From: Escherichia phage V18
Sequence record: NC_041937.1
Direction: 5' to 3' (one strand)
Length of the DNA stretch: 64,000 nt
A program made the position numbers and the translations under genes. Each line of letters starts with the position of its first letter. The stretch's first letter is position 1. The notes under the pieces are model-generated. The model was not told the origin of the DNA, did no database searches, and was given only the letters and a program-made list of their open reading frames with translations. Below, one piece after another: positions 621 through 57,914 of the stretch.

Positions 621-683
621 TGGTTGACATAACCACACGGACGTGGTATTGTCACCTCATAAGATGTTCAGGAGGGTTTAACC

Positions 684-890: not shown

Positions 891-899
891 GGGGGATAC

Positions 900-1363: not shown

Positions 1364-1642
1364 GAGATCTGTAAAAGAGAAATTCGATAAGACAGCTTTT
1401 GTATTCGATACACCTCTGGACGATATCATCAGAGGTATGCAAGCCTTGTATCGGAAGGCTGAATCTGAGCAGTTGTCTGAATCAGAACTTTACTGGCTTG
1501 GTTGGTGGGAGTTAAACCTGCCTAAAGCTGAAAGTTCTTGTCTGAGAACTGTTAAAACGTGCGCCCAAGAAAACGCTGCACTTGGAATCTACCACAAAAG
1601 GAAAAGATCAACAAAAAGCTCTCCAAGAAAGACTAAAAAGTC

Positions 1643-1672
1643 TTGACAAAAGTGTTATTAATCTGATATTAT
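1643..1672 (+). promoter_or_regulatory. sigma70-like promoter
   Basis: TTGACA at 1643-1648, 17-18 bp spacer, ATATTAT at 1666-1672; upstream of 1747..2013. Confidence 0.4.
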
Positions 1673-2005
1673 CGGTCAGATATCTATAAACTAGGAGAAC
1701 TAGATATGCTTAAATTTTTATTGTTGAAGATAAAGATATTGTCCAGTTGTATGCAAACGAGAATCATAAAGGTATGATTCTAAAGAAGGCAAGCAACCTT
1801 CATGAAAACACAATTCAACCTGGTGATGTAATTAAGATCTGTGGTTATATGATACCAGACTCCTTGATGAAAATAACCCACCACTGGGGGTCTAATCCGT
1901 TCCTTTTTGAAAAGTATTGGGATGTTGAGTCACTTATTGCAGAGAGTGATGATGCCTTCCATTGCAGCATCCAACCATCTTGCAGAATAACTAACAGGAG
2001 GGTCT

Positions 2006-3145: not shown

Positions 3146-3473
3146 TGACTAAAAATTCTGTAGATAACGCAATTATGGAAGCTGTTTTTGAGGATGATCA
3201 CACAACAGGGACACTTAAAACAAAAAATACATTCGTTGTTGCCACAGGTATGTGGCGGTTGTATGAAGATGACACCATTTCATACATCCTGTACACGGAT
3301 GATTACGCAGATGACCGTGTATGGTCTGCTGTTTTAAAAGAGGATTGTGAGCTGATTGAGGGCGAGCGGTTATGCATGTTCACCAGTGTGGAAACAGATG
3401 TTAAGCTTTGCTCTCTCGTCTTGTTCAAAGATAAGGCTTATGCTCCTGATGAAGGAGAGGAGGATGAGGAAGC

Positions 3474-4103
3474 ATGAGAGAGCGTCTATTATCCATAGAC
3501 CAGTCGTTGACACACACAGCTTGCGTTGTATGGGACGATGGAAAGCCTGTTCATAAGGTTGTGTTACGAACTCAAAGCTCATCTGCAAAAGAGATGAAAC
3601 CAGGGACGGTTTCTTTTGCAACAGCTGCTGAGCGTATTGACTGGATCTGCAAACAGGTCAGATATTATATCCACACGCACGGCGTTGACACCGTAGTTAT
3701 GGAAGGGCTTTCCTTTGGATCACGCGGGGATGCCACACGTGAACTGGCTGGGTTGTTTTACGGTCTTGAAGTTATGCTTTGGGATGCCTTAGCTGATTGT
3801 GAAAATGACGGCCTGTTTAAGGTCCACACAGTGACACCAACAACTGCCAAAAAGTTTGCTCGTAGTCATCTTCCTGAGGAACTTGCTTTCGAGGAGAAGA
3901 AAAAGCTTGACAAAAAGACAGGTAAAGAGCATACTGTGAAGAAACCTGTTACGATGGATAAAAAGTTGATGGTTAAGGCCTGCGAAGTATCTGAACCTGG
4001 GTTCCTAGATGGGATCAATTTGGTACAAGGTAAGGCCGATCTCGCAGATGCTTATTGGATAGGCAGGGCGCATCTGGAGGGATTATCGCAAAGCGTAAAA
4101 TAA
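3474..4103 (+). CDS. RuvC-like Holliday junction resolvase (putative)
   Basis: 209 aa; N-terminal LSIDQSLTHTACVVWDD, central VVMEGLSFGS, C-terminal DLADAYWIG, matching the spacing of RuvC-fold catalytic acidic residues. Confidence 0.45.
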   Translation: MRERLLSIDQSLTHTACVVWDDGKPVHKVVLRTQSSSAKEMKPGTVSFATAAERIDWICKQVRYYIHTHGVDTVVMEGLSFGSRGDATRELAGLFYGLEVMLWDALADCENDGLFKVHTVTPTTAKKFARSHLPEELAFEEKKKLDKKTGKEHTVKKPVTMDKKLMVKACEVSEPGFLDGINLVQGKADLADAYWIGRAHLEGLSQSVK

Positions 4104-4660
4104 GAAAGAAAGCTGTCAAAGCCCCCGTTCATAACGGGTGGTTAAAAGATTCTAAGGACATAGCCAACTTTCGAAAAGAATTGTCAGAGGAGCAGGATGG
4201 TCTTGATCCGATCTTGTGCGAGCCACTTCGTAAGCCTTGTTTGGATCATGACCATCTAACTGGTCGTTGCAGGGGTGTTTTGTCACAATGCACTAATACC
4301 TTTGAGGGGTATGTGCTTAAATACTGGATGAAATACTGTAACGAGTATACAGATTGCAGTTTATCAGAGGCGTTGCGCCGGATGGCTGACTATTTGGAGA
4401 AAGACTACAGCGACTTCCCGCTCCACAAAAACTACAGAGATGATATGACAAAGTTCTTGAGGAGATGCTCTAAAGCTACGATCATTGCACGAGCAGAATC
4501 AGATCTCAATCTTGTCATTAATCCAGAGTGCACCAAGCATGAGGCTATTGAGTTCTACATGCAGGAGTTTATAAAGAAAACTGAGGAGAGAGATTTCTAT
4601 GGGGATGAAAAAGGTATTCAATCCTTGCGATTCAGTTCTGATCAGGATGAAATACCGTAA
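4055..4660 (+). CDS. endonuclease VII-like (T4 gp49 family) protein
   Basis: Motif CEPLRKPCLDHDHLTGRCRGVLSQCTN (C..C…DHDH.TG..RG.L..C.N). The start is a non-ATG codon overlapping the upstream gene, so the true start is uncertain. Confidence 0.55.
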   Translation: MDRQGASGGIIAKRKIRKKAVKAPVHNGWLKDSKDIANFRKELSEEQDGLDPILCEPLRKPCLDHDHLTGRCRGVLSQCTNTFEGYVLKYWMKYCNEYTDCSLSEALRRMADYLEKDYSDFPLHKNYRDDMTKFLRRCSKATIIARAESDLNLVINPECTKHEAIEFYMQEFIKKTEERDFYGDEKGIQSLRFSSDQDEIP

Positions 4661-4826
4661 CTGGAAAGGTGTTGTTGCAGATCGCTGCGTTACTGAGCCT
4701 AATTTATGGTTTGGCTCTACAGAGTATCATAAAGAAGAGCAGTGGTTGATGCATGCCTTTGATGTAGACAAGGGCGAATATCGTGACTTCGCTTTAAAAG
4801 ACATTCTTCAGTTTTACTAAGGAATC

Positions 4827-5816
4827 TTGACGATGATGACAAAGTTAACTCTTGAGCAAATTTTAACACTAAAGCAACAGGGATACACTAATAGACAAAT
4901 TGCTCGTGAATTTTTAGGCCGTGAGTCACGTGAGAGCTGGATCCGACTACAGCTTAAACGTGCACAGGAGAATATGTCAGAGATTGTAGGAGAAGCAACG
5001 GAGCGCTTCCTTGAAGAGCACAAAGGTGCTAAAGTTTGGGTGTATGATACAGAGACATCTCCAACAAACGGCTGGTTCTTTGGGCACTATAAGACCAACA
5101 TTCAAACCTGCGGTATTGAAATTATGCCCTACATGCTAACTTTCGCAGGTAAGTGGTTAGACAGTCCTAGTGTGGTTGACTGCGCTCTTCCCGATTACAA
5201 AATGTGGGATGAGGATATTCACAATGATCTCGAATTGATTCAGGATTTGTGGTATTATCTGGATAAATGTGATGTCGCAGTAGCCCACAATTCAGGTTTT
5301 GACTGTGGGTGGGCCAACCAACGATTTGCATTTCACGGGTTGCCTCCAACAAGCCCCTACAAAGAGGTTGACACCCTTAAAATGATCAAGAAGGCATTCC
5401 GTTTGAATGCAAACACTTTGGAGTATGCATGCAAATACTTCCAACTGGCCCGACAGAAACTGATTGATCACACATTTGAAATGTGGATCAAGTGTGTCCA
5501 TGGTGATCTTGAGGCATTTAAACAGATGCGGGAGTATAATGTTGGTGATATCCTGTCTCTGGAAGGACTGTATTTGCTGGCTCGCCCGTTTGCTAAGCAG
5601 CACCCAAACATGTCATTGTACTATCAAGACGAGGAGCCAAAAGTTCGTTGTCCACGCTGTGGTGGAGAACACCTTCACGAGGAAGAAGCTTTGGCGTATA
5701 CTCAACTGAGTGCATTTAAAACATACCGCTGCGAAGGTTGTGGATCTGTTGTTCGTGACCGTAACAACATCCGCACCAGAGAAGAAATGAAAAATACCCT
5801 GATTCAGATAATCTAA
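4827..5816 (+). CDS. DEDD-family 3'-5' exonuclease with N-terminal HTH-like segment
   Basis: 329 aa; WVYDTETSP (Exo I), VAHNSGFDCGW (Exo II), YNVGDILSLEGLY (Exo III, YxxxD); N-terminal QGYTNRQIAREF; C-terminal CPRCGG…CEGCG zinc ribbon. Confidence 0.55.
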   Translation: MTMMTKLTLEQILTLKQQGYTNRQIAREFLGRESRESWIRLQLKRAQENMSEIVGEATERFLEEHKGAKVWVYDTETSPTNGWFFGHYKTNIQTCGIEIMPYMLTFAGKWLDSPSVVDCALPDYKMWDEDIHNDLELIQDLWYYLDKCDVAVAHNSGFDCGWANQRFAFHGLPPTSPYKEVDTLKMIKKAFRLNANTLEYACKYFQLARQKLIDHTFEMWIKCVHGDLEAFKQMREYNVGDILSLEGLYLLARPFAKQHPNMSLYYQDEEPKVRCPRCGGEHLHEEEALAYTQLSAFKTYRCEGCGSVVRDRNNIRTREEMKNTLIQII

Positions 5817-5824
5817 CAATTATA

Positions 5825-5850
5825 GGGAGGCTTGCGCCTCCCTTTTCCTT
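5825..5850 (+). terminator. rho-independent terminator
   Basis: GGGAGGC-ttgc-GCCTCCC stem-loop followed by TTTT, just after the stop of 4827..5816. Confidence 0.5.
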
Positions 5851-6678
5851 TTGGAGGCACTTTGAGCAAGAAAGAGTCCAACGACAAATACTACACAAAC
5901 CCTGAGTATGCAGAATATCTTGTTGGTAAAGTAAAAGATAAGTATGGGAATTGTGCATACGTTGAGCCTTCTGCTGGAAGGGGTTCTTTTTCAAAACTAT
6001 TTTCAGAGATACTGTCGTACGATTTAGTACCAGATCCTGAATTTGAAGGACCAACACCGTGCATTCAGGCAAACTTCTTGGAGGTGCATCCCAAGGCAGA
6101 TGTCTTCATAGGTAACCCACCATTTGGCAAGAATTCATCCTTAGCTTGCAAATTCTTTAACCATTGTGCATCATTGCTAGAGCTTGGAGGGGCTATAGCC
6201 TTCATCTTGCCACGGACATTTGAAAAAATTTTTTTCAAACAAACTGGACATGTCGATGCACCTTGTCTACAGCGAAAGGTGCCCTAAGAATTCGTTTTTA
6301 CTTAATGGCAAACCTTATGACGTGCCATGTGTTTTCCAAATTTGGGAGAAAAAGGCGTGCAATAGGGATCCTGTAGAGATTGGAGAGAATAAGTTATTTT
6401 CTTTTAGCACACCAGATGACTACGACTTCTGTGTAAGACGTGTTGGGTATAATGCTGGAAAAGTATTGGGGGATGATGACCCAAAATCTGAAGAATCAAC
6501 ATATTTCATAAAATCTTTAGTTAACGGTGTTGACAGAGTGTTTGCTGAATGCTATTCTTCTTTTCAAGAAGAAGCAGGTAAGACTGCTGGAATGAAGAGT
6601 ATAGGTAAGAAAGAACTACAATACATTTTGGAGACCAGGTATGATCAAAAGCATAGACTTGACCAAAGAACTTACTGA
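5832..6678 (+). CDS. N6-adenine DNA methyltransferase, frame interrupted near 6220-6290
   Basis: AdoMet motif EPSAGRGSF and catalytic IGNPPFGKN in ORF 5832..6287; continuation (…CVFQIWEKK) in ORF 6220..6678 in another frame; break in an A6T7 homopolymer stretch. Start codon uncertain. Confidence 0.5.
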
Positions 6679-7099
6679 TGCAAAAGCTTTTGGTGAGACA
6701 GCGGTACAAAGAGGACAGGCGATGGGACTGGCACTACCTTTCGTCTTAAAAGAGCACTTTACAGATTTTCAACTTATCAAAGGTGATAAGGGAATGCTTA
6801 TCCTGGAGCATAAGTTGAGTAAGAAACGCTATAAAGTCGTTTTTAATTCTAAAGCTCCAACAAAACTGGGATTCAGAACTTACAATCTTAACCCATCCTA
6901 CACTAAGGGTGTTGGAAGGGTAGAACAACAGCATTTCAGTGCCAGAGCTTCTTTAGCCCCTTTGATGCTAAATTTCTCAGGGGTGGCTTTAGGATACCTT
7001 GATAAGAAAAGGGTTCTTCATGTTCGTTTCACAGACTTTGTAACGCTTTTAGCTAACAACGAGGTTGATGAGAAGGGACGTGTAAAAACAAACTTCTAA
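6641..7099 (+). CDS. hypothetical protein
   Basis: 152-aa ORF, no recognisable motif. Confidence 0.3.
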   Translation: MIKSIDLTKELTDAKAFGETAVQRGQAMGLALPFVLKEHFTDFQLIKGDKGMLILEHKLSKKRYKVVFNSKAPTKLGFRTYNLNPSYTKGVGRVEQQHFSARASLAPLMLNFSGVALGYLDKKRVLHVRFTDFVTLLANNEVDEKGRVKTNF

Positions 7100-7325
7100 T
7101 AACGCATAGTATGATTGGAGACCGAAATGACACAATGACACTAGAGTTAACAATTCCAGACAGCTTTTCAGAAAACTTTATCCCAGAAATGATGAGTAAG
7201 ATGCGATCATTGCTTGATCAGATTGAGGAGGCTGTTTGGGAAGACGATGCTGTAGTGGCTAACGAGCTGGTAGATAAGTGTAAAAGTATTATTGATGCAG
7301 TTGAAGAATACCACGGAGGTTTTTA

Positions 7326-7940
7326 ATGGATATTATTGTTCTTAACGCCCCACCCAGCAGTGGTAAGGATCACATTGCAGATCTCTTGTTGGAAGCTATT
7401 CCTAACTCACACCACCGTGAGGTTAAGGAAATGCTCTTCAGTGTGGCAATTAAGGCAGCTGGTGTAACTCCTCAACTCTGGAATGCACTTTATGACCGCC
7501 ACTACAAAGAAGAGCCTTGCCCTTTCTTAATGATAGACGGCAAGCATGTTTCTCCGCGAGAATGGATGATCCATTGTAGTGAAAATCTGATTAAACCTAT
7601 CTTTGGTGAAGATGCTTTCGGTAAAGCCGCAGTCGCATCTTTGAAGAAAGATTTCCCTGAAGGTAAAGGGGTTATTGTTTACTCCGATGGGGGATTCAAA
7701 GAGGAGCTGGCATGCCTTAGCGAGTACGCATACAGCACAGGTGGAGATCTGTTGTTGTTCCGTATTCACCGTGTAGGATATGACTGGGGAAATGATTCCA
7801 GAACCTATCTAAGTCTGGAAAAGAACGGAATAAAAGGGGTTGAGTTTGATGTTGTAAACCCTGAAGGTGCACCTTGGGAGTGTGCATCGGAGATTGTGTG
7901 CAAGTATATTGATGTTAAAGAGGCCCAAGAAGAATGTTAA
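7326..7940 (+). CDS. P-loop deoxynucleoside monophosphate kinase-like protein (T4 gp1-like)
   Basis: N-terminal Walker-A-like LNAPPSSGKDHIAD, resembling the GxxxSGKD.xAD start of phage dNMP kinases; 204 aa. Confidence 0.45.
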   Translation: MDIIVLNAPPSSGKDHIADLLLEAIPNSHHREVKEMLFSVAIKAAGVTPQLWNALYDRHYKEEPCPFLMIDGKHVSPREWMIHCSENLIKPIFGEDAFGKAAVASLKKDFPEGKGVIVYSDGGFKEELACLSEYAYSTGGDLLLFRIHRVGYDWGNDSRTYLSLEKNGIKGVEFDVVNPEGAPWECASEIVCKYIDVKEAQEEC

Positions 7941-8527
7941 TCGGAATTGATGTAGATCTGACACTGGTAGATTCAGGAACAGCATGGTGGGAGTGGTTGG
8001 AGCGTTTGTATGGTCCAGCCAGTAAGACAGTAGCTAAACCTTCTAATGGGCTAATGTATTACGATCTGTCAAAGTATTGGCCTGATCGTCCCAAAGAAAA
8101 CATCATAGGACCTTTTGATTTCTGGAGTGATCCGTTCCTCTACGACTTCCTTAAGCCTGAAGAGGGGGCTATTGAGGTTATGAAAGATTTGGTGGCTCGT
8201 GGTCACAAGCTTGCATTTATCTCGGTATGCAAGAAAGGTCACCTTGCATCTAAATCAAGGTTCTTAAAGCGTTGGACCAGTGATTTTATGGATCTGGACG
8301 ACCACACCCAGGGCCACGGCTTCTACGCCACACATTTCAAAGGGAATGTGGCTGTAGATGTTATAATTGACGACAGGCATGAATACCTGAACCAATTCGC
8401 TTCACGACCTGAAGTTATTAAAATCCTAAAAGATACGCCTTATGAGCAATTCGAGGAGTTAAAGGTCAGTGTTGACTATACCGCTAATAGCTGGTATAAA
8501 ATAGGAAAATTTTTAGAAGGTATTTGA
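7934..8527 (+). CDS. HAD-superfamily phosphatase (putative 5'-deoxynucleotidase)
   Basis: N-terminal IGIDVDLTLVDS (DxDxT HAD motif I) and C-terminal VDVIIDDR (motif IV-like); 197 aa. Confidence 0.5.
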   Translation: MLIGIDVDLTLVDSGTAWWEWLERLYGPASKTVAKPSNGLMYYDLSKYWPDRPKENIIGPFDFWSDPFLYDFLKPEEGAIEVMKDLVARGHKLAFISVCKKGHLASKSRFLKRWTSDFMDLDDHTQGHGFYATHFKGNVAVDVIIDDRHEYLNQFASRPEVIKILKDTPYEQFEELKVSVDYTANSWYKIGKFLEGI

Positions 8528-8728
8528 AATGGGCAGATGTTCTAAAGGTGGCGATCCTGTAGTCAGATATGGTGACTGGCTAGAGGTGTATGATCTAGAA
8601 GGTAAGCTAGTGTATGCCTCTAGGATCACCCAAGATATGTGCTCTGACATGTTCAACAGATACCTTGCATTTAAGGCCAACATAAACCCAGACGAAATTT
8701 CCAAAATTAAAACAAGGAGAGCTAAATA

Positions 8729-9712
8729 ATGCTAAAACTGTGCACTGCAAAGATTATTGCTGACAGCATTTCCGAGAAAGGTAAGCGTATCACCACTTTT
8801 GAACTAGAGTATCCTCGAATTATTCACTCAGAGCTTATGACGCACCGAGTGTTCAGCCGAAACGCCATGTCTTCCCGTGCAGTACCTGTCGGCAAGATGC
8901 TGCAACAGATTGTGGAGAATCCGGCAATGCCAGTTCGCTTCGGTGTAAATAAGCGAGGAATGGAAGATGGTGGGGAACACGATCAAAAGATCCGTGTAGA
9001 GTACACTGACATGGAGCTAACTCCTGAAGAGTTTTGGAAAGAAGCTGCAAAAAACGCCGCTTGGCATGCAGAGAAGTTCGCCCTTGCTGGTTACCATAAG
9101 CAAGTATGTAACCGCTTAGTGGAGCCGTTCCAGCGCATGAAAACAGTTGTAACAAGCACCGAGTGGAATAATTTTTTCCACCTCCGTTGCTGGCACGATG
9201 CGGATCCTACGATTCAGATGTTAGCTAATTGTATGTGGGAGGCTCTTGAGAATAGCACTCCTGAAATCCTTAAACCGGGTCAATGGCACACCCCATATGT
9301 AGAGCACGTTTATTTGGACGGAGAGTTTAACTACGCTGTACGTGACACAGAAGGAAAGCTTTGCATTCTCGATACTAAAGAAGCTCTGTCTATCAGTGCT
9401 AGTTGCTGTGCACAAGTATCTTATCGAAATATTGACAGCACGTTTGAAAAGGCAGATAGTGTTGCTAAAAAATTGATTGGTGGGGATCGTATTCATGCAA
9501 GCCCTTACGAGCACCAGGCAACACCTATGGATCACGATAATGCAATGGAACGTTTAAACTACTACCTGTCTTCATGTGAAATCACACAAGACATCAGTAC
9601 TTGGCAGGAAGGTGTAACCCATCAAGACCGTGATGGTAAATTCTGGTCTGCCAACTTTTGTGGGTGGGTTCAGCACAGACAACTGCTTAATAACCACTTC
9701 GTGAAAGGTTAA
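8729..9712 (+). CDS. thyX: flavin-dependent thymidylate synthase
   Basis: ThyX signature MTHRVFSRNAMSSRAVP (RHR…S…S.R); 327 aa. Confidence 0.8.
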   Translation: MLKLCTAKIIADSISEKGKRITTFELEYPRIIHSELMTHRVFSRNAMSSRAVPVGKMLQQIVENPAMPVRFGVNKRGMEDGGEHDQKIRVEYTDMELTPEEFWKEAAKNAAWHAEKFALAGYHKQVCNRLVEPFQRMKTVVTSTEWNNFFHLRCWHDADPTIQMLANCMWEALENSTPEILKPGQWHTPYVEHVYLDGEFNYAVRDTEGKLCILDTKEALSISASCCAQVSYRNIDSTFEKADSVAKKLIGGDRIHASPYEHQATPMDHDNAMERLNYYLSSCEITQDISTWQEGVTHQDRDGKFWSANFCGWVQHRQLLNNHFVKG

Positions 9713-9741
9713 TCCTATCACAGCGATAGGTAACTTTTGTG

Positions 9742-9770
9742 TTGACTAATAGTATCAGATAATCTATAAT
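9742..9770 (+). promoter_or_regulatory. sigma70-like promoter
   Basis: TTGACT 9742-9747, 17 bp spacer, TATAAT 9765-9770. Confidence 0.5.
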
Positions 9771-9771
9771 A

Positions 9772-10272
9772 ATGGCTCACTTTGTTAGTGAGCCAGAAAT
9801 GGAGACAGATATGAGTAATGTTATGATTCCTAAAAAGACATTTATTTCAGTTACTTTGGATTTCCTATCTACCGTTCCAGGGTTTAACGTTCGCACACGA
9901 AACGGTCTCCGAGCTGCACTCTTTGCCGTAGGGTTTGATTTAAAAAGTATTGATGTTCTTCGTGGAAAAAACGTTCGATGCAAAAATAAGCCAACACATT
10001 ATCGAAAGGCAGATGTATTTGCTGGTGTCATGCGTGCAGACTTTAGATACCCGCAAATGTATAACGGTGTAGATATTTTAGATGTAGATAAAGCACCCGG
10101 TGAGGCAATGCTTGTTCAAGATCTTCCGTATGATATCCCTGTAGAGGATCGTGTTAATGTAAGAAAGTATACAAAACAATCTGAAAAGGCTGAAGATATT
10201 CATATTGTTGATGAACCTTTCAATTTTGAAGATCTGCATCGCCTGGAAAAATTATTCGGTATTGAAAGCTAA
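9772..10272 (+). CDS. hypothetical protein (true start probably at the internal ATG near 9811)
   Basis: The ORF ATG at 9772 lies 1 nt after the -10 box; GGAGA at 9802-9806 precedes the ATG at 9811. Confidence 0.35.
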   Translation: MAHFVSEPEMETDMSNVMIPKKTFISVTLDFLSTVPGFNVRTRNGLRAALFAVGFDLKSIDVLRGKNVRCKNKPTHYRKADVFAGVMRADFRYPQMYNGVDILDVDKAPGEAMLVQDLPYDIPVEDRVNVRKYTKQSEKAEDIHIVDEPFNFEDLHRLEKLFGIES

Positions 10273-10509
10273 GGTGGTGAAGATGAGTCATAACTCCAAG
10301 TGGAAGGATCTTGGTTTTGCAAGTCGGGCAGAGTATGTTGGTTGGCTTTGGTTCAACGGCCTGACAAACGATATTAAAATGTATGATGATGTTTATTATG
10401 ACGAGTATACAGGTAAAATTATAAATATCTCTGTAGAAGAGGATACCTTTATCCAGCAAGATACTGATACCTGCCTTGATAAATACGTTAATGAAGTGGA
10501 GGAAGCAAA

Positions 10510-12825
10510 TTGATCACCAAGGTAATTAAAAGCAACGGATGTGAAGTGGCATTCGATCCAGAACGTTTAAATAAGGCAGCTATTTTCGGTGACGACGGTA
10601 ACGGCAATTGGTCACATATTGCACTGGATGCCTACAAGCGGTTGTATGATGGATGTACAACCAAAGAAGTTAACCAAGCTATTATAGACTCTTGTGTTAG
10701 CCGTAAAGACGAAGCACATTCCCGTATGGCTGGTCGTGTTCTTATTGGTCAGATCTATAAAGAGGCTTTTGGAGGGTTTACAAAGATCCCTTCCTTACCA
10801 TCATTTTACAATGACATGGTTGAGAAAGGTTATTGGGAGGATATGGGTTATAGCTTTACCGAGCTAAACACTTTAGACGCTGTTATTGACCACAGTAAAG
10901 ATCTCGGTTATGGCTATGCAGTCCTTAAACAGTTTCGCGACAAATACGGGATCAAGGATACTCTTAAAGACACCTTGTTTGAATCTCCCCAGATGATGTT
11001 TATGGGGATAGCAATGGCTGTCATGAAGAATATGCCGAAAGAACGTCGTATCAACGATGTTGTAAAATTATACACTTATCTGTCCGACTTAAAGATCAAT
11101 GCCCCGACACCGTACTTAAACGGGCTGCGCACAGGTAAGACAGGGTATGCATCTTGTTGTGTAATAAAAGCTGACGATACAGCAAAATCTATTGGTGTGG
11201 CACGTGAAGTTGCGTACACAATGACGGTTAACCAAGCAGGTATCGGCTACTACTTATCCTCAAGATCTGCAGGCGATGGTGTTCGTGGTAACACTATTAA
11301 ACATATGGGTAAGATTCCATATTATCGAGGTATTGATGCTGGTGTTAAGGAGAACAGACAACAATCACGTGGCGGTTCTGCAACAGTATCATTCCTTGCA
11401 CTGGACCCGCAGATTGATGAGCTAATCCGTTTGAGAAACCCTATGACTGTTGCTTCAAAAAGAATCAACACCATGGACTACTCCATCGGTATTAATAGGT
11501 CGTTTATCAACCGTGTGGCTAAGAATTTAGATTGGATGCTTGTTTCTTATAAGCACGCTCCTCAACTGCATGAGGGTATCTTCACCATGTCTATGGAGGA
11601 GTTCGATGCAGAGGTTGAGCGTATTGCTAAAGATGACAGTATTCCTAAGACATGGATCCGGGCTAGAGATCTTGCTGTTGAGCTGATCACGCAGCGTACT
11701 GAGGTGGGAAGACTGTACGTATACTGGACAGATGAGATGAATAGACATACACCTTTTAAAGATGTGATCTATTCAAGCAACCTGTGTGCAGAAATAGCCC
11801 TCCCGACAAAAGGCTATTCAGATATGCGTAATATCTTCAAGTACGATGTTGATGATGGTGAGGTTGCATTGTGCTTCCTGTCATCTCTTGTAGCTGGAAG
11901 GGTTACCCCAGAGGAGTATGAGGATGTTGCATACTACACGGTGCTTATGATTGACAATGTTATGGAAATCATGACATATCCGTATGAAAACATGGAGAGT
12001 ACTGTTAAAAAACGCAGATCCATCGGGGTTGGCCTTACCAATGTTGCACATTTTATTGCCAGCCACAAGGTTACTTACGGATCTCCTGAAAGTAAACAGC
12101 TTGTTCACGATCTTGCAGAACTTCACAGCTACAGCTTGCATAAGGCAAGTTTACGGTTGGCAAAAGAGCGTGGTGTCTGCGAGTGGATGTATAAAACAAA
12201 ATATCCAGAAGGTTGGTTACCAATCGACACTTATAACAAAGAGGTCGATAGTGTGGTGAAAGATCCTTCTCTTAAACAGGATTGGGAAGGGTTACGTAAA
12301 GAAATCATTGAAAATGGTGGGCTACGTAATAGCGTTCTTGAAGCATATATGCCTAATGAAAGCTCTTCGCTGGCAACAAACACCACTAACGGGGTTTATC
12401 CTGTCCGTGAGCACATTATCTTTAAAAAGTCGCCACAAGGGCAGGTGCTGTTTATCGTTCCTGAATACGATGAGTTGAAAGAGTATTACACTTCGGCTTG
12501 GGACGTTGATACTAACGACATGATCGATATGTATGCTGTGATTCAAAAATTCACAGGTCAGGCAATCAGCGCGGATTTATACATAGACTACACCAAGTTG
12601 AAAGATGGTAAAATTTCAATGAAGGAGCAGCTAGGGTACCTTATCCGTGCCACTAAATTCGGGATGAAGACATGGTATTATTTAAACTCTAGGGTTGGTG
12701 CTGGTGACTCCTTGGCAGAGGAACTTCATGCCAAGAAACAGGCTGAAGATGAAACCAGAAAGAACTATCCTTTGATTGCAGATAGTTCAGTTGAAGATCC
12801 GTATTGCGAAAGTTGTGCACTATAA
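10510..12825 (+). CDS. nrdA: ribonucleotide reductase class Ia large subunit
   Basis: 771 aa; N-terminal ATP-cone-like VIKSNGCEVAFDPERLNKA, SSNLCAEIALP active-site region, C-terminal CESCAL redox Cys pair. Confidence 0.85.
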   Translation: MITKVIKSNGCEVAFDPERLNKAAIFGDDGNGNWSHIALDAYKRLYDGCTTKEVNQAIIDSCVSRKDEAHSRMAGRVLIGQIYKEAFGGFTKIPSLPSFYNDMVEKGYWEDMGYSFTELNTLDAVIDHSKDLGYGYAVLKQFRDKYGIKDTLKDTLFESPQMMFMGIAMAVMKNMPKERRINDVVKLYTYLSDLKINAPTPYLNGLRTGKTGYASCCVIKADDTAKSIGVAREVAYTMTVNQAGIGYYLSSRSAGDGVRGNTIKHMGKIPYYRGIDAGVKENRQQSRGGSATVSFLALDPQIDELIRLRNPMTVASKRINTMDYSIGINRSFINRVAKNLDWMLVSYKHAPQLHEGIFTMSMEEFDAEVERIAKDDSIPKTWIRARDLAVELITQRTEVGRLYVYWTDEMNRHTPFKDVIYSSNLCAEIALPTKGYSDMRNIFKYDVDDGEVALCFLSSLVAGRVTPEEYEDVAYYTVLMIDNVMEIMTYPYENMESTVKKRRSIGVGLTNVAHFIASHKVTYGSPESKQLVHDLAELHSYSLHKASLRLAKERGVCEWMYKTKYPEGWLPIDTYNKEVDSVVKDPSLKQDWEGLRKEIIENGGLRNSVLEAYMPNESSSLATNTTNGVYPVREHIIFKKSPQGQVLFIVPEYDELKEYYTSAWDVDTNDMIDMYAVIQKFTGQAISADLYIDYTKLKDGKISMKEQLGYLIRATKFGMKTWYYLNSRVGAGDSLAEELHAKKQAEDETRKNYPLIADSSVEDPYCESCAL

Positions 12826-12832
12826 TTTTAAA

Positions 12833-12852
12833 GGGGCTTCGGCCCCATTTTA
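12833..12852 (+). terminator. hairpin with UUCG tetraloop after nrdA
   Basis: GGGGC-ttcg-GCCCC followed by ATTTTA. Confidence 0.4.
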
Positions 12853-12864
12853 GAGGTTAGAATA

Positions 12865-13953
12865 ATGGCTGTATTTAATGCTGAGAACACCGCTCATAAA
12901 ACTGGTGACTATCCGCTGTTTTTAGGACAGCAAATGGGTATGTACGACTCTATCAACAAAAAATATCCACAACTGTTTGAACTATACAAAAAACAAAAAG
13001 AACAAGATTGGGCAGAGGATGAAGTGGATTTGTCGCAATCTATTTCAGATTTTGTAACATGCTCAAAGTCAACTTATGACGTGATGGTACAGACCTTGAT
13101 GTGGCAATGGGAGGCTGATAGCGTTGCGGCAAGATCGATCATCTGCCTCTTTTCACCGTTCATCACTAATAGTGAGCTTTTCACTCTATTGATGAAACAG
13201 TCGGAGATTGAAGTTCTTCACGCACTAACTTACTCAGAGATTGTTAGACAATGCCTCCCCAATGCCCGTGAGATTATAGAAGAGATTCAGGAAAACCAAA
13301 ACGTTCTGAGCAGATCCGGTGTTATTGTCAAATACATGCAAGAGCTAGAGGTTATTGGTGCAAAATACCGACTGGATCCTTCTAGTGTTGAAGAAGATGT
13401 TGTGCGGAAATGCATTCTTAGAGCGCTTTTTGCACTTTTAGCTCTGGAAAGTATTGAGTTTATTGCAAGTTTTGCATGCACTTTCGCAGTAGCTGAACAG
13501 GGTATCTTTGTTCAGGTGGCGCAGCTTGTTCAAAAAATCATGCTTGACGAAATGCTACATTCGAAAGGTGATTTTGCCATCATTGATATCTTGCTTAACG
13601 ATCCCGCATGGGAGAAAAGCTTCCTGGAGATAAAAGGGGAGTTAAAAGAGATTCTTGATGAAGTACGAACCAAAGAGTACGGTTGGAGTGACTATATTTT
13701 CAGCGAAGGAAGAGCGATTATAGGTCTTAACTCACCGTTGCTTAAAGAATGGGTTGACTATAACTGCTCACCGATTTATGATTACTACGACATCGACAAA
13801 GACTTTGTGCCGCCAACAAAGGACCCGCTACCGTTTATGCAGGTGTGGATGAAACCTTCATTGCAACAGACGGCGAACCAAGAAATGTCGAACACTGACT
13901 ACCGCGTCAACACAACTGTTAACGACGCTGAAGAAGAAATTTGGGAGTTTTAA
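12865..13953 (+). CDS. nrdB: ribonucleotide reductase class Ia small subunit
   Basis: 362 aa directly downstream of nrdA; ferritin-like E/H-rich helices (EIEVLHALTYSEI), acidic C-terminal tail …EEEIWEF. Confidence 0.8.
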   Translation: MAVFNAENTAHKTGDYPLFLGQQMGMYDSINKKYPQLFELYKKQKEQDWAEDEVDLSQSISDFVTCSKSTYDVMVQTLMWQWEADSVAARSIICLFSPFITNSELFTLLMKQSEIEVLHALTYSEIVRQCLPNAREIIEEIQENQNVLSRSGVIVKYMQELEVIGAKYRLDPSSVEEDVVRKCILRALFALLALESIEFIASFACTFAVAEQGIFVQVAQLVQKIMLDEMLHSKGDFAIIDILLNDPAWEKSFLEIKGELKEILDEVRTKEYGWSDYIFSEGRAIIGLNSPLLKEWVDYNCSPIYDYYDIDKDFVPPTKDPLPFMQVWMKPSLQQTANQEMSNTDYRVNTTVNDAEEEIWEF

Positions 13954-13956
13954 TAT

Positions 13957-14235
13957 ATGAGCTGCGAAAAATCTTTTTTCATCATCATTTACGGTAAGGA
14001 TAACTGCCCACACTGTGTCAGAGCAAAAGAATTTGCAATCAGCAAAGGTCTGCCTTTTGTATATAAGACACTTGGCGATGGCTACACAAAAGAAGAGCTT
14101 ATTGAGAAGTGTAGTCCAATTGTCCCCAGAACGTTGCCGCAGATCTTCTTAGAAAGCGATCTTGACAGTATCCATATAGGCGGTGCCGACGATTTCATCT
14201 CTTTTGTTAAGAATGGTTTTGGAGAGAAAAAGTGA
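13957..14235 (+). CDS. glutaredoxin / NrdH-like redoxin
   Basis: 92 aa; CPHC active site in IYGKDNCPHCVRAKEF; between the aerobic and anaerobic RNR genes. Confidence 0.7.
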   Translation: MSCEKSFFIIIYGKDNCPHCVRAKEFAISKGLPFVYKTLGDGYTKEELIEKCSPIVPRTLPQIFLESDLDSIHIGGADDFISFVKNGFGEKK

Positions 14236-16354
14236 AAGTTGTAAAACGGGACGGTAGAGAAGAGTTCTATAACGGAATTAAGGTGATCAAGGCGGCAGAG
14301 TCCGCCTTACTTGAGTCTGGACATACTGAAGAAGAAGCTTACCGGATCGCCTGCGCGGTTAATGAAGTTGTTGCTAACAATCTACCAACCGACCAGTGCA
14401 CGATCTCTGTAAAAAATATCCATATCCTTGTTGAAGATGCTCTTATGGATATGGGTTTAAAATGTGCAGCCAGAGAATACATCCAGTATAGACAGACAAG
14501 AGATAATAACAGAGAGGCAGGTGGAAAACTGCTTGCAGATATTAGTGGCTTCTTGGATCGAACTTGTGATGAATTTACAAAAGAAAACGCAAATAAGCCC
14601 ACTAATCATGTACACACTCATCGTGACCTGCTTGCAGGCATCCTTAGCAAACACCTTGCATCAACACAGATCCTGCCAGACCGTGTTTCAGAAGAGCACA
14701 ATAAAGGCTTCATCCATGTGCATGATCTTGACTACTTGATCAGTCCGTTAACAAACTGTTGTTTGGTAAATTATCCAGATATGTTGGAAAACGGATTCAA
14801 CATTGGCAACGCCCATGTCAGTAAGCCGAAGTCAATAGGGGTTGCAACAACAATCCTTAGCCAAATCTCTAGTGCGGTAGCTAGTGCTCAATATGGTGGT
14901 CAGACTATGAGCCATATTGATCATTATCTGGCACAGTATGCTGAAGCGACCTATGAGAAGAACCTTAAATTTTGCCAGGAACATTGGTTGCCAGATGCTG
15001 AGACTGTTGCAATGCAAATGACAGATAAAGACGTGTTTGACAGCATGCAGACGTTGCTTTATCAGATCAACACACTAACCTCGGTAAACGGTAACCCCTT
15101 TTATCACATTAAGTTTAGGTTTGGACACTTCGGTCTTTGGTAGAATGATTACCAAAAACTACCTGAAAGTCCACAAAATGGGTCTTGGTGAAGAACGTAT
15201 TACACCTGTGTTCCCTAAAGTGCTGTTCTTCCTAGAAGAGGGTGTCAACATGAACCCTGGGGATCCTAACTACGATTTGAAACGATTAGCTCTGGAATGC
15301 TGTGCAGAACGTATCTACCTGACTTCGTATCTGTACCACTAAATAGAAAAGTGACAGGCTCGACAGATGGCAAAGTAACGAGCATGGGATATGTAGAAGT
15401 TTCTTATCGAAATATAGCGACCCTGTAACAGGCGAGGAGAAATACCTTGGCAGATTTAACTTAGGCGTTGTTAGCCTTAACCTGCCAATGATTGCGGCAA
15501 AAGCTAAGACGGAAGGTGTTGATTTCTTTGCAGTTCTTGACGAATACTTGGATCTTGCATACGAGGCTCACCTTGTAAGGGTTAATCGTCTAAAAGGAAC
15601 AAAGGCGGGGCAGAACCCCATCATGTGGTGTGAAGGCGCTCTTGCTCGCCTGGATCCCGAAGAGAGTATTGATAAACTCTTCTATGACGGGTACGCTTCC
15701 ATCAGTATTGGGTATATCGGTGTGTATGAAACCTGTCAGATTTTGGGTAGAGAAGGCGACAAGGCTTTAGCTCTTGGAATCCTTCAGCACATGAGAGATG
15801 CTTGTGAGCGATACAAGAAGGAAAGTAGACTAGCATTTAGCTTGTACGGCACTCCTTCTGAGAGTCTATGCTATAAAGCTGCAACCTGTCTGGATCGTGA
15901 ATATCCGGAAGTGTTGAAGCACGAGCATGAATATCTCACCAACAGTTTCCATCAGCCAGTATGGATAAATAGCTCTCCTTTTGATAAGTGGGAGTATGAG
16001 GAAGGTTTTGCTATGATCTCCTCTGGTGGCAACATCGGATACGTAGAGACACCTAACCTGAAAAACAACCTGGATGCTTTAGAGGCCCTTGTTGACTTCG
16101 GGTATAAACACATTATGTATTTTGGTATTAACCAACCTGTAGATAAATGTCTCAAGTGTGGTTTCTCTGGTGAGTTCAGTGCAACAGCTAAAGGCTTTGT
16201 ATGCCCAGAGTGTGGAAACCATGAAGAGGGAACGATCAGTGTAATTCGACGTGTGTCTGGATACCTTTCCAGTCCTAACTCCCGTCCTTACAATAAAGGT
16301 AAGCAAGCGGAAGTTATCGAGCGAGTTAAGCACTACGGAAGTTGTGGTTGCTGA
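14232..16354 (+). CDS. nrdD: anaerobic ribonucleotide reductase (class III), reading frame broken in three places (possible pseudogene or indel errors)
   Basis: N-terminal ATP cone in frame 0 (14232..15143); middle segment …ITLSLGLDTSVFGRMITK…CCAERIY in frame +1; …PDFVSVPLNRKVTGSTDGKVTSMG in frame 0; C-terminal …CRSFLS…GRFNLGVVSLNLP…RVSGY (glycyl radical) and CLKCG…CPECG in frame +2 to 16354. Fragments sum to about 700 aa. Confidence 0.75.
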
Positions 16355-16530: not shown

Positions 16531-17004
16531 ATGAACATTGTCGGATACACAGAAATATCTTACACCGAAGGGCCAGGTATTAGAACTGCCTTGTGGGTAT
16601 CTGGGTGCCCACACGCTTGCCCTGGTTGCTTTAATCAGGCATTTTGGTCAAAAGATAAGGGGAGGGAGTTCACTGAAGAAGATTTGCAAAAAATCTTGTC
16701 AGATTTAGATAACCTGTCTGTGTGCGGTATCTCTCTGCTGGGTGGAGAACCCTTAGCATACTATAATGAGCCAGATATTATTAGCCTGATGGAGAAAATT
16801 AAGGAAAAATTTGGTGACAAGAAAACTATTCTTGTATATACTGGGTTCACATTTGACCATATCTCTAGTGATGTTCTTAAACTGGCTGATATCATCATTG
16901 ACGGTAAGTATGTAAAAGATTTACCAACCAAGAAACCGTTCCGAGGCAGCGATAACCAAAGAATGTTTAAAAAAGTAGCAGGCGGTTGGGTTCAGGTAGA
17001 CTAG
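16531..17004 (+). CDS. nrdG: anaerobic RNR activating enzyme (radical SAM)
   Basis: 157 aa; CPHACPGC (CxxxCxxC radical SAM cluster motif); directly downstream of nrdD. Confidence 0.8.
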   Translation: MNIVGYTEISYTEGPGIRTALWVSGCPHACPGCFNQAFWSKDKGREFTEEDLQKILSDLDNLSVCGISLLGGEPLAYYNEPDIISLMEKIKEKFGDKKTILVYTGFTFDHISSDVLKLADIIIDGKYVKDLPTKKPFRGSDNQRMFKKVAGGWVQVD

Positions 17005-17567: not shown

Positions 17568-18355
17568 ATGGGTCGAGCTAAAGAAACAAAACGCATGCGT
17601 GATGAAGCTAGAGAGGCTCGCAAATCTGATCGCCTGCGTAAGGCTGCTGAGAAATTTGCTGACGAACGAGAGCACACTGCTCCAGCTCTCCGACCAATGA
17701 ATAAGAAGCAGCAAAAGTATCTTGATTACCTAGGGTCGCGTAAAATTATCATTGTAAACGGAGTGTTTGGGTCTGGTAAAACATTCATGGCATCTGCTAT
17801 GCAGGTGACCTTCTGCGTAAGAATGAAATTGATAAGATCATTGTTGCACGTCCTTACGTTCAGACAGGAAAGACTTCAGGATTTAAACCTGGAAATGCAA
17901 TGCAGAAACTGTGGCCCTATCTTCGAAGCATGATGGACACGATTTGTCGTCGTGTTGGCAAAGGTGCTTTTGCCGCAATGCTGGGAGACGGTCAGAACAG
18001 CCGTATCGAGATTTGTGAAGTTGAAAGCATTCGTGGTCGTAGTTTCGATGAGCGATGCTTTGTCCTGATTGACGAGGCACAGCAAACTAACCCTGAAGAA
18101 ATGTTGTCAATTATCACAAGGATCTCTGATCAAGCCACCCTTGTAATTATGGGTGATAATAGCCAACGTGACATCCCTGGTAAATCTGGCCTTGCATGGG
18201 TGACGGATTTCTTTACTCGTCATCCAGATCCTGAGGTTGGAATGATCAGCTTTGATAGTCCAGACGATGTCGTTCGTTCTGGGTTGGGTCGTCAGATCGC
18301 ACTCAATCTTATTGAGGATCGTGCAAATCATATTTGGACCCCTGTTTCCGAGTAA
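17568..18355 (+). CDS. phoH: PhoH-like ATPase, frame interrupted near 17795-17815
   Basis: Walker A GVFGSGKTFMAS in ORF 17568..17933; the PhoH-like continuation (…KIIVARPYVQTGKTSGF…LIDEAQQT…VIMGD) is in the next frame and joins ORF 17900..18355. Confidence 0.65.
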
Positions 18356-23574: not shown

Positions 23575-23945
23575 ATTATGAAACTTTTTGAGTGGTTTAA
23601 AAAGTTTAAATATAAAGCTGTAGCCATCGTGCCGTGGTCAATTCAGTGGGTTGATGAAGGTGGTCTACCAATACCTGGTGACAAAGATACTGGGTACTGG
23701 ATTATGATGGAGAACGGGTTTGGAAAGCGAAAGTATACGTGCACAAACTCTACTCGATCTGCCACTAACTGGTCTAAATTCTACTGGGGAGCCAACGAGT
23801 GGGGAAGATACGCCACCAAATCAATGGCACTTATTGGTATAGCAGAGTACATTGCAGCCAGAGATAGGGTTGGAGACACTTATTACTATACTGCGGACGA
23901 TATTCGTAACAGTGTTTACGTCCCACAACCACCTGATGGAGACCG

Positions 23946-47250: not shown

Positions 47251-47264
47251 ATGTCAGTTAGGTG

Positions 47265-57128: not shown

Positions 57129-57914
57129 TTATTCCCCTCTCCTTACTACAGGCTCGTTTGCTAAGAATACAGCTTTTGCCCAGCCACGTGGTGTGAGGCT
57201 TCGAATCATCTTCGTTCTTGCACTCTTTCCACCAAGCTTGGCGTGTTGCATGGAATACCCGCTAACCACGTCAACTATTTGCGGGACAGGTTTTGTGTCC
57301 GGGATTATAAATCCATTACCTATCCAGCCGCAAGTTATTTTTGGATAGGCATCACGTGGAGCTATAAATTCAGGAAACCATGGGTTTACATCATCCTCAG
57401 GTAAATACCCGCCATAGTCAGAAGGATGAAAACGGTAATCAGGTTTGCGCCACAGTGTGGACATAACACCAACAGGATTCTCTACATGCCACGGGCAATC
57501 GTAAATCTCTCCCAGCTCTTCCGCAACCCGAGCATCCTTTACAGCATTAATTTGGATCATGGGGTCCTTAGCCAGCTTTTTCTTAAAATGTGCAGCACCC
57601 GATACCGCTAAATGCGTGCACGGAGGAAATGCAAGAATAAAGTCTGGAGCTGGATACATGCAAAAAGTTTCCTGAGGGAACCACGGGTCAATCCAATAGT
57701 CAACATAGTGAATGTTGGGATGATCGGTTATCACCTCTGCATAACTGCCGTGATCAGCACCTTCTGCGTTAAAGCACAGGCACAGATATCCAGCTTTTGC
57801 CCAGTCAATGACTGCACCACCAGACCCGTCAAATAGACTCCACACAACACCTTTGTGGTAGTGTTCTTTGTAGATAAATTTCAATTTGCTGTCTCCTAAT
57901 GCAAAAAGCCCCAC
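57129..57914 (-). CDS. C5-cytosine DNA methyltransferase-like protein
   Basis: 261 aa; LFDGSGG (motif I F.G.GG), FPPCTH (motif IV PC), HVENPVG (motif VI ENV); shorter than typical Dcm-type enzymes. Confidence 0.35.
   Translation of the reverse strand: MGLFALGDSKLKFIYKEHYHKGVVWSLFDGSGGAVIDWAKAGYLCLCFNAEGADHGSYAEVITDHPNIHYVDYWIDPWFPQETFCMYPAPDFILAFPPCTHLAVSGAAHFKKKLAKDPMIQINAVKDARVAEELGEIYDCPWHVENPVGVMSTLWRKPDYRFHPSDYGGYLPEDDVNPWFPEFIAPRDAYPKITCGWIGNGFIIPDTKPVPQIVDVVSGYSMQHAKLGGKSARTKMIRSLTPRGWAKAVFLANEPVVRRGE

Follow-up and report, generated by a model that had tools for sequence, protein, structure and literature searches.

Frame path of nrdD and its neighbouring genes

Why does nrdD, the class III ribonucleotide reductase (RNR) gene of the rV5-like Vequintavirus V18 (14232–16354, + strand), change reading frame three times when the RNR genes around it are intact? 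We addressed this question in a stretch of 64,000 nt from sequence record NC_041937.1 (hereafter, the window). The initial annotation had described nrdD as broken by three closely spaced indels, and both three-frame translation and the list of open reading frames (ORFs) agreed, with frame changes at 15092/3, 15317/8, and 15389–91; the annotated frame order (0, +1, 0, +2) was likewise recovered in the three-frame translation. Frame 0 stays open from 14232 until a stop codon at 15141–15143, frame +1 carries NrdD sequence from approximately 15094 to 15317, frame 0 is used again from 15318 to 15388, and frame +2 extends from 15392 to the stop codon at 16352–16354. The positions of the lesions were set by alignment to intact nrdD alleles, a check that had been proposed together with the annotation and that pinpointed each of them; within 15000–15500, the V18 sequence at the breaks reads AACGGTAACCCC, TCTACCTGA, and GGGATATGTAG. 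In the alignment, the V18 gene measures 2123 nt, compared with 2124 nt in intact alleles, and at least 116 relatives covering nrdD have it in a single frame or as exons.

Also as annotated, nrdA (10510–12825), nrdB (12865–13953), the glutaredoxin gene (13957–14235), and nrdG (16531–17004) are uninterrupted and have the same lengths as the copies in relatives. The contrast with intact neighbours holds for these four genes but is misleading for the window, in which other genes are frame-broken.

The segments of nrdD correspond to the exons of intron-bearing relatives. Segment 1 (14232–15092, + strand, frame 0), the equivalent of exon 1 by translation, ends in ...GTAAACGGT and covers the ATP-cone together with the N-terminal portion of the NRDD domain; its 287-aa product, ending in ...SVNG, is exactly the exon-1 ORF of intron-bearing phages and was found in 213 contigs. 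Segment 2a (15093–15317, + strand, frame +1; translation and alignments) is equivalent to the first part of exon 2, and segment 2b (15318–15388, + strand, frame 0; translation and flank comparison) to its end, ...AGCATGGG. Segment 3 (15392–16354 including the stop codon, + strand, frame +2; translation and domain search) is the exon 3 equivalent and holds the catalytic Cys, a Cys4 zinc ribbon, and the glycyl-radical motif RVSGY. With an initial M, its 321-aa product exactly matched an ORF on at least 13 independent contigs, all with intron 2, and a three-exon layout was present in all six of the listed contigs with the exon-3 ORF (24 read).

Breaks at intron insertion sites

Two of the three breaks are the only two known intron insertion sites in nrdD, and the breaks are not random: the estimated chance that three random indels in 2.1 kb would give the observed pattern (within 300 nt and hitting both sites) is approximately 3e-5.

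Break 1 (15092..15093, + strand; alignments to intron-bearing and intron-less alleles) is the insertion junction of group I intron 1 in relatives. Two nucleotides are absent between 15092 and 15093, where the 'CA' of exon 2 is lost and the intron is absent, so that V18 reads AACGGT joined directly to AACCCC; in intron-less alleles the sequence is AACGGGCAAAC, and splicing of a two-exon allele would give AACGGT followed by CAAACCCC. The annotation had instead placed an extra C in a C run at approximately 15095–15098, a claim that the two missing nucleotides at 15092/3 replace; the CCCC run after the break also occurs in the intron-bearing allele of phage nom. In relatives, intron 1 is either ORF-free (257 nt) or contains an HNH gene (797 nt), and that of nom has the P1 pairing AACGGU/GCCGUU and a terminal G. 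Site 1 of V18 is preceded by GGT, not GGG, which is the intron-bearing type (U pairing in P1). The upstream flank showed exact identity over 90–144 nt with nom, 241Ecol014PP, A147, and L019, and the downstream flank over 18–66 nt with natural two-intron alleles (241Ecol014PP, L019, and L020). An exon patch typical of intron-1-bearing alleles spans the break (15035..15129, + strand; difference list, codon comparison, and alignments); it differs from the intron-less ev168 allele by approximately 19 substitutions and no amino-acid change (codon comparison), and in the phage collection, which did not include the V18 record, it occurred only in records with the 257-nt intron.

Break 3 (15389..15391, + strand; alignments to intron-2-bearing alleles) has 'ATA' in place of the final T of exon 2, which gives GGG-ATA-TGT rather than the expected GGT-TGT. 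The 'extra AT' annotated at approximately 15388–15391 was correct in its net gain of 2 nt, but the exact change is the replacement of T by ATA. In 17 phage records, group I intron 2 is inserted at this position; the intron of relatives is 762 nt long with an HNH endonuclease ORF, and the site lies directly before the catalytic Cys codon, which aligns with T4 NrdD Cys290. The V18 flanks were exactly identical to those of two-intron alleles over 71 nt upstream and 26–116 nt downstream. A recoded patch of 38 nt (15392..15429, + strand; alignments) corresponds to the exon-3 start of intron-2-bearing alleles and preserves CRSFLSKY although six of its codons are changed synonymously, one of them from AGC to TCG. 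The patch was not found in IMG/VR, and the host E. coli nrdD was rejected as its donor (0 matches in 5,426 E. coli genomes).

Break 2 (15317..15318, + strand; alignments to relatives) is a 1-nt deletion private to V18, which reads TCTA-CCTGA, compared with TCTACCCTGA or TCTATCCTGA in relatives; the C annotated as missing at approximately 15318 is thus confirmed as one absent nucleotide, C or T, at 15317/8. Going upstream from site 2, the match to 241Ecol014PP, L019, and L020 is exact as far as this break, where it stops.

The assignment of the insertions in relatives to group I introns rests on sub-threshold matches to RF00028, a conserved core, P1 and the terminal G, and the join annotations of depositors; nrdD is annotated as a two-piece join in the AlexBoehm and HeinrichReichert records. 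An Rfam search at the gathering threshold gave no match to these insertions, and RF00028 was recovered in a permissive search only, with E = 1e-5 for intron 1 and 1.7e-6 for intron 2, below the gathering score. Intron 1 (nom and slur16), intron 2 (SYGMH1), and the EmilHeitz endonuclease gene had no blastn match in the V18 window, and with 2123 nt, compared with 2381–3683 nt in intron-bearing relatives, the V18 nrdD contains no group I intron RNA. The exon sequences at both insertion sites are nevertheless of the intron-bearing type. Judged from them, the V18 nrdD belongs to the allele type whose other known examples all carry two putatively self-splicing group I introns.

Coding integrity of nrdD

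Three minimal repairs yielded a 707-aa NrdD with a full-length match to PF13597 (NRDD, E = 1.4e-160) and matches to PF01228 (Gly_radical, E = 2.9e-23) and PF03477 (ATP-cone, E = 4.1e-13); in the deposited sequence, the NRDD domain is split over three reading frames. The catalytic motifs of class III RNRs are present: MGCRSFLS aligns with T4 residues 288–295, and CLKC...CPEC and RRVSGYL are found in segment 3. Compared with the intact ev168 allele, the repaired gene has 46 synonymous and 5 non-synonymous codon differences, with three of the latter belonging to the natural exon-3 patch. Because of this ratio, the sequence gives no sign of decay in nrdD, and its constraint is not that of a decaying pseudogene; nor did the lesions occur in independent sequences of the lineage. 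The suggestion that nrdD is decaying while the aerobic pathway is kept does not agree with these counts or with the complete set of catalytic motifs. Its alternative, an error cluster, fares better in that error explains the data better than decay does; the cluster is not random, however, since two of the breaks are junction scars at intron sites. A functional two-piece NrdD, made of the 303-aa N-terminal and 288-aa C-terminal fragments, was also considered and rejected, as the middle of the protein, including the catalytic Cys, lies in neither ORF.

Other defects in the V18 record

The other frame-broken genes of the window include those for the primase/helicase, an N6-adenine methyltransferase, and a homing endonuclease, as well as several small genes. 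Those truncated products that could be looked up were found only in the V18 record: the 568-aa primase/helicase and its 89-aa N-terminal fragment (one contig each), V18_00141 (one contig), V18_00171 (130 aa, compared with 207 aa in approximately 250 relatives), and V18_00158 (80 compared with 90 aa) all matched V18 alone, several of them exactly, with a single contig for each. The NrdG of the window also matched only V18. Beside the primase gene, a free-standing HNH-AP2 homing endonuclease gene, approximately 662 nt long in EmilHeitz and HeinrichReichert, is missing (57130..57140, − strand; comparison with these two phages). The 5' end of the V18 primase gene is still the allele linked to the endonuclease gene, and at the junction the primase ATG has lost its T, which destroys the start codon. 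Because V18 is a propagated lytic isolate (PMC13304965) and the gene is assumed to be essential, a broken primase/helicase without a start codon is unlikely to be real.

Relative to both JeffSchatz and HeinrichReichert, V18 has 29 indels in a clean context, including 20 deletions of 1 nt, 3 deletions of 2 nt, and 2 insertions of 1 nt. Among the short indels, deletions outnumber insertions by 23 to 3, and 11 of the 20 single-base deletions shorten a homopolymer. Five further segments of 86–815 nt are lost at blunt junctions (21726, 23251, 23762–70, 31928–32, and 36829–34) with 0–1 nt of microhomology and 0–7 nt of filler. The 815-nt loss was shared by no record in the phage collection, and the lost segments of 144 and 216 nt were kept in every best match listed from that collection.

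Artefact does not account for all frame breaks of the window: an independent MEGAHIT metagenome contig and three further contigs have the same split of PhoH at 17798, and the explanation of all window frameshifts as errors was ruled out on this ground. V18 also retains two other homing endonuclease genes (approximately 900–1363 and 47254–47810), so any dropping of segments spared some mobile elements; the ORF that breaks at 1156 is homologous to homing endonucleases. At the intron site of the DNA polymerase gene, V18 has a clean, in-frame junction without an intron that matches natural intron-less alleles at 100% identity.

Searches for element-free flanks

Intron-bearing-type flanks without an intron were found at neither site in the phage collection or IMG/VR, and the site 1 flank pattern without an intron was not found in the JGI metagenomes. 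The exact site 1 junction of V18 had no match in GTDB genomes, IMG/VR, or JGI metagenomes (the GTDB scan used the exact site 1 junction, and the JGI scan used the site 1 flank pattern). The searches of IMG/VR, JGI, and GTDB thus yielded no independent copy of the V18 scars and no precise intron-less allele with the same flanks. In a collection of 15 billion proteins, the repaired intron-less NrdD and the broken V18 fragments (303, 288, and 73 aa) were absent, and the exon-shaped products of the intron-bearing gene were present on 213 and at least 13 contigs.

Origin of the lesions

We consider it likely that the nrdD lesions are an assembly or consensus defect specific to the V18 record, with a technical cause that we infer from the pattern of defects: they lie in one record, are deletion-biased, and include a split primase/helicase with a lost ATG, in a gene whose essentiality is assumed. 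The lesions would have arisen while the sequence was built, with the V18 phage DNA free of them. Plausibly, reads prone to 1-nt deletions were fed into a step of consensus building or contig joining that is unable to represent large insertions or unmapped stretches. If segments were dropped, the true genome would be expected to measure approximately 135–140 kb, compared with 129,454 bp in the record. The real V18 nrdD is probably intact and would encode a complete class III RNR, either in three exons that are spliced at the RNA level (the arrangement of 241Ecol014PP and JEP1) or as a precisely intron-less gene reading AACGGTCAAACC, TA(C/T)CCTG, and GGTTGTAGA. A literature search found no paper describing the sequencing of V18.

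Some specific routes were rejected. Assembly from RNA with the introns spliced out would have been precise, and the free-standing endonuclease gene is missing as well. Contig breaks induced by repeated introns or endonuclease genes fail as an explanation because each missing element occurs only once in a 72-kb region of a relative and has no copy in the window. Mapping to rV5 as a reference of the same structure does not fit either, as rV5 has several segments that are absent from the window.

Of the rival explanations, the one that survives best, and is still unlikely, takes the lesions as real: an ancestor of V18 would have gained the introns and the endonuclease gene by homing, and imprecise DNA-level excision would later have removed each of them, leaving nrdD a pseudogene. 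Such excision could occur, for instance, when element-free phages infect the same cell and the heteroduplex loops that form are repaired imprecisely. Element-type flanks without elements are the expected remnant after homing with co-conversion, a process described for T4 introns (PMC2988022). The base of a heteroduplex loop would sit exactly at the element boundary, so that such a process could 'know' the boundaries, and, judged by homology with the JeffSchatz annotation, a recombination endonuclease of the EndoVII type is encoded in the window. The split of PhoH indicates that genuine frame breaks exist in the lineage. As established for T4, nrdD is dispensable in aerobic culture, so a broken copy would be tolerable, which is a counterpoint to the artefact reading. 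However, real excision requires three independent excisions in one genome that were near-exact yet imprecise, of a kind seen in none of more than 100 sequenced relatives or in metagenome collections. One of the scars costs the primase/helicase gene its start codon, and the frameshift in this gene is likewise confined to the V18 record; nrdD shows no relaxed constraint, and the record has many other private, deletion-biased defects. That the V18 DNA truly lacks both introns and the endonuclease gene, through a boundary-aware loss of selfish elements at the DNA level, appears quite improbable to us.

There is little to recommend a third explanation, in which the V18 nrdD is intron-less and intact with precise junctions and the three breaks are independent read-level errors. 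It would draw on the many private 1- and 2-nt deletions of the record, on break 2, which is exactly of this kind, and on the clean intron-less site in the DNA polymerase gene. Two of the three errors would nevertheless have to hit intron sites to the nucleotide (chance approximately 3e-5), break 3 is a net insertion plus a substitution, unlike the usual deletions in V18, and no intron-less allele with V18 flanks occurred in any collection searched. Finally, decay of nrdD by random indels, or programmed ribosomal frameshifting that reads through them, is scarcely credible: the closeness of the frame changes, the aerobic dispensability of the gene, and the CCCCTTTT run after break 1 speak for it, but the excess of synonymous differences, the coincidence of lesions with intron sites, the stop codons after each shift, and the need for three shifts of different sign, none of which is conserved in any relative, speak against it.

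If a defect of assembly or consensus is the cause, as we favour, pseudogene calls and comparisons of gene content or genome size based on the V18 record would mislead. V18 proteins have RefSeq accessions, and the phage presumably represents an ICTV species as its exemplar. Clustered frameshifts can, in turn, flag places where an assembly dropped introns. Should the scars be true, they would capture a rarely observed event, the loss of introns and an endonuclease gene from phage DNA, shortly after it inactivated a dispensable nrdD. The nrdD with two group I introns, one of them just before the catalytic cysteine codon, is real in relatives and already visible in public annotations.

Comparison with known systems

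The closest counterpart is the two-intron nrdD of Vequintaviruses (241Ecol014PP, JEP1, and the metagenome/Logan contigs L017–L022), which has identical exon sequence at both junctions, the same gene order (nrdA, nrdB, grx, nrdD, nrdG, and PhoH), and exon-1 and exon-3 products that match those of V18 exactly; V18 differs in having neither intron and lesions of −2, −1, and +2 nt. Compared with frameshift-rich phage records from indel-prone sequencing, V18 shares the deletion-biased, homopolymer-shortening indels and has truncated proteins that are unique to it and full-length in hundreds of relatives. Unlike simple read errors, two of its three nrdD lesions are scars of missing introns, and it also lacks whole segments with blunt junctions. 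The nrdD (sunY) intron of T4, with I-TevII, is the same kind of element in the same host gene, and the alignment of the repaired V18 protein with T4 NrdD spans 599 residues (E = 3e-167). In T4 intron homing (PMC2988022), as here, the insertion site lies between short exon tracts of the donor type. In contrast to T4, the Vequintavirus gene has two insertion sites, and the intron endonucleases of V18 relatives are of the HNH type (Pfam HNH_3, with the intron 1 ORF above the gathering cut-off and the intron 2 ORF just below it), whereas I-TevII is a GIY-YIG enzyme.

Three lesions in the nrdD gene

The window represents an rV5-like Vequintavirus with approximately 97–98% identity to JeffSchatz, slur16, and the rV5_ev phages. 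Its class III (anaerobic) ribonucleotide reductase gene, nrdD (14232–16354), spans 2123 nt, compared with 2124 nt in intact intron-less alleles such as that of rV5_ev168. The initial annotation described this gene as broken in three places, which was confirmed by alignment and three-frame translation. The ORF list and the translation also bore out the frame path it had traced: frame 0 to a stop codon at 15141–15143, frame +1 to 15317, frame 0 to 15388, and frame +2 from 15392 to the stop. The neighboring nrdA, nrdB, glutaredoxin, and nrdG genes were uninterrupted and of normal length in the ORF list, as had been stated.

The lesions were placed by alignment with intact and intron-bearing alleles. 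At 15092/15093 (AACGGT joined to AACCCC), 2 nt are absent, rather than an extra C being present as had been proposed. The second lesion lacks 1 nt at 15317/15318 (TCTA-CCTGA), and in the third, ATA replaces T at 15389–15391 (GGG-ATA-TGT); these lie near the ‘missing C’ and ‘extra AT’ suggested earlier. Adding CA, adding one C, and changing ATA to T yields a 2124-nt ORF with 46 synonymous and 5 non-synonymous codon differences from rV5_ev168, 3 of the latter falling in a natural exon-3 patch. The NRDD, Gly_radical, and ATP-cone domains of the repaired protein are all full-length, and it aligns to T4 NrdD with E = 3e-167. The excess of synonymous differences and the complete domains speak against the suggestion that nrdD is decaying.

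Group I introns at two lesion sites in relatives

The position of the first lesion (site 1) is split exactly by a 257-nt insertion in nom, AlexBoehm, HeinrichReichert, and others, and by a 797-nt insertion with an HNH gene in slur16 and JEP1. The third lesion (site 2), located between a Gly codon and the catalytic Cys codon (aligned to Cys290 of T4 NrdD), is split exactly by an insertion of 762 nt that contains an HNH-type ORF in SYGMH1, YP-6, and 15 more phage records. Several observations support both insertions being group I introns: their matches to the Rfam group I intron model, which include the AAGAUAUAGUC core, have E-values of 1e-5 and 1.7e-6 but score below the curated cut-off (0 matches at the gathering threshold); as read from the sequences, an internal guide sequence pairs with each exon end (AACGGU/GCCGUU and CAUGGGU/GCUCAUG) and both insertions have a terminal G; and the BASEL depositors annotated nrdD as a two-piece join. 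The predicted splice products, AACGGU joined to CAAACC and AUGGGU joined to UGUAGA, are both in frame. Natural Vequintaviruses with three nrdD exons and two group I introns were also observed (JEP1, 241Ecol014PP, and contigs L017–L022); their exons are mostly listed publicly as separate ‘nrdD_1/2/3’ genes or hypothetical proteins, unjoined.

The exons in the window are of this two-intron type. Around site 1 (15035–15129), approximately 19 substitutions distinguish the window from rV5_ev168, none of which alters an amino acid in the codon comparison, and in the phage collection, which lacks the record of Escherichia phage V18, the source of the window, they are restricted to alleles bearing intron 1. 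Downstream of site 2 lies a 38-nt recoded patch (15392–15429); six of its codons are changed synonymously, AGC to TCG among them, with CRSFLSKY preserved, and alleles bearing intron 2 have the identical sequence where their exon 3 begins. The natural two-intron alleles of 241Ecol014PP and contigs L019 and L020 are exactly identical to the window at both junctions, over 90–144 nt upstream and 18–66 nt downstream of site 1, and over 71 nt upstream, stopping precisely at the 1-nt deletion, and 26–116 nt downstream of site 2. None of the relatives' intron sequence was found anywhere in the window. By these sequence comparisons, the window holds the exons of a two-intron allele without the introns.

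Two-intron-type flanks without introns were found in neither the phage collection nor IMG/VR; the site 1 flank without its intron, the only flank scanned there, was not found in JGI metagenomes, and the exact site 1 junction, the sole pattern scanned, was not found in GTDB genomes. A collection of 15 billion proteins contained neither the broken fragments of the window nor the repaired NrdD without introns; in the same collection, 213 contigs carried the exon-1 product (287 aa with SVNG at its end), and at least 13 carried the exon-3 product (321 aa, an M followed by the translated 15392–16351). The three-exon layout was seen in all 6 contigs shown, of 24 read. The nrdD state of the window is unique among the collections searched.

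Defects elsewhere in the V18 record

V18 is a therapeutic isolate that has been propagated (PMC13304965). Approximately a dozen annotated genes in the window are frame-split relative to JeffSchatz, and several of its frame-truncated products were found in the V18 record alone, each on one contig of 129,454 bp: the primase/helicase (568 aa) with its N-terminal fragment (89 aa), V18_00141, V18_00171 (130 aa versus 207 aa in approximately 250 relatives), and V18_00158 (80 aa versus 90 aa). The NrdG of the window was likewise found in V18 alone. In clean context against two references, the window shows 20 1-nt deletions, 11 of which shorten a homopolymer, 3 2-nt deletions, and 2 1-nt insertions. 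Frame breaks in the window include CCC to CC at 1156, which breaks a homing endonuclease homologue (JeffSchatz bas55_0202; 900–1363), and two 1-nt deletions (6230 and 6236) inside A6-T-A-T6, which break an N6-adenine methyltransferase (5832–6678). Outside long homopolymers, 1-nt deletions at 38983, 41054, and 26441 fall in CAG^ATC (GATC), CCAG^GCTG (CCWGG), and CTAG^TCTA, motifs resembling methylation sites, and the phage encodes several adenine methyltransferases and one Dcm-like enzyme; speculatively, this could hint at base-calling errors tied to DNA modification.

The primase/helicase gene, a 692-aa protein in relatives, is split by CC to C at approximately 56790 into the 89-aa and 568-aa ORFs. 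In EmilHeitz, HeinrichReichert, and Phage 203/206, the genes for the Dcm-like methyltransferase and the primase/helicase are separated by a free-standing HNH-AP2 homing endonuclease gene (approximately 662 nt); in the window, this endonuclease gene is missing at 57130–57140, upstream of the primase gene among minus-strand genes. The first approximately 345 nt of the primase gene are of the endonuclease-linked allele (98.4% to EmilHeitz versus approximately 92.7% to endonuclease-free alleles), and the endonuclease gene is kept in every record whose primase 5′ allele is at least 95.9% identical to the window. At this junction, the T is missing from the primase start codon, ATG.

Five more segments are lost, with 0–1 nt of microhomology and 0–7 nt of filler at the junctions. 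The 815-nt loss (21726/21727, no microhomology) fuses the homologues of rV5 gp123 (putative glycosidase) and gp125 in frame, at codons 11 and 25, respectively. Relative to best-matching relatives, 144, 216, 86, and 349 nt are lost at 23251/23252, 23762–23770, 31928–31932, and 36829–36834, respectively, with filler loosely resembling the start of the missing segment. The three losses compared with the phage collection were those of 815, 144, and 216 nt: the first was shared by 0 of 118 matching records, and the other two segments were present in every best match listed.

The missing elements are not repeats, as judged from a 72-kb region of a relative, and two other endonuclease genes are retained. 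A 555-nt stretch (47254–47810) corresponds to the HeinrichReichert homing endonuclease bas58_0089 and is missing from JeffSchatz; the loss of endonuclease genes from the record is therefore selective. At 52567–52580 is the site where a DNA-polymerase group I intron carrying a homing endonuclease gene is inserted (854 nt in HeinrichReichert); here the window has no intron, stays in frame, and matches natural intron-less alleles (phages C15 and A12a) at 100% identity, with a small synonymous cluster relative to JeffSchatz adjoining the site. A 1-nt difference at 17798 (GCATCTGC-TATGC) divides the PhoH-like ATPase gene (17568–18355) into ORFs of 121 aa and 141/151 aa. Because an independent MEGAHIT metagenome contig (ERZ27290372 k141_1044056) and three further contigs share this split, it appears to be a true natural variant, and thus some frame breaks in the window are not artefacts.

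Origin of the nrdD breaks

The near-boundary loss of three elements in one genome, together with the deletion-biased private indels, makes a technical cause specific to this record the best explanation, and we infer that it probably applies. Any process that removed three mobile elements almost exactly at their boundaries, in one genome only, must ‘see’ those boundaries; its scars also disrupt a gene that seems essential, in a phage that is viable. A consensus built on a backbone lacking the elements would see the boundaries automatically, as would the discarding of unaligned stretches, while random deletion would not. On this technical reading, the real nrdD is probably intact, with three exons as in 241Ecol014PP. 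No account of V18 sequencing was found in the literature.

Real excision at the DNA level could also leave scars, for example through imprecise heteroduplex-loop repair in mixed infections, but it is unlikely; a single genome would have to undergo three rare events, and its primase gene would be damaged. A precise intron-less nrdD with independent read errors is quite improbable, since two of the errors would have to hit both intron sites by chance. The substitution pattern, the stop codons, and the absence of conservation contradict both programmed frameshifting and random decay, which are very improbable. Of the two possibilities raised by the initial annotation, error was right in spirit, and decay was not supported. 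The nrdD breaks are best filed as a database-record defect overlying known biology, namely group I introns with homing endonucleases in phage nrdD.
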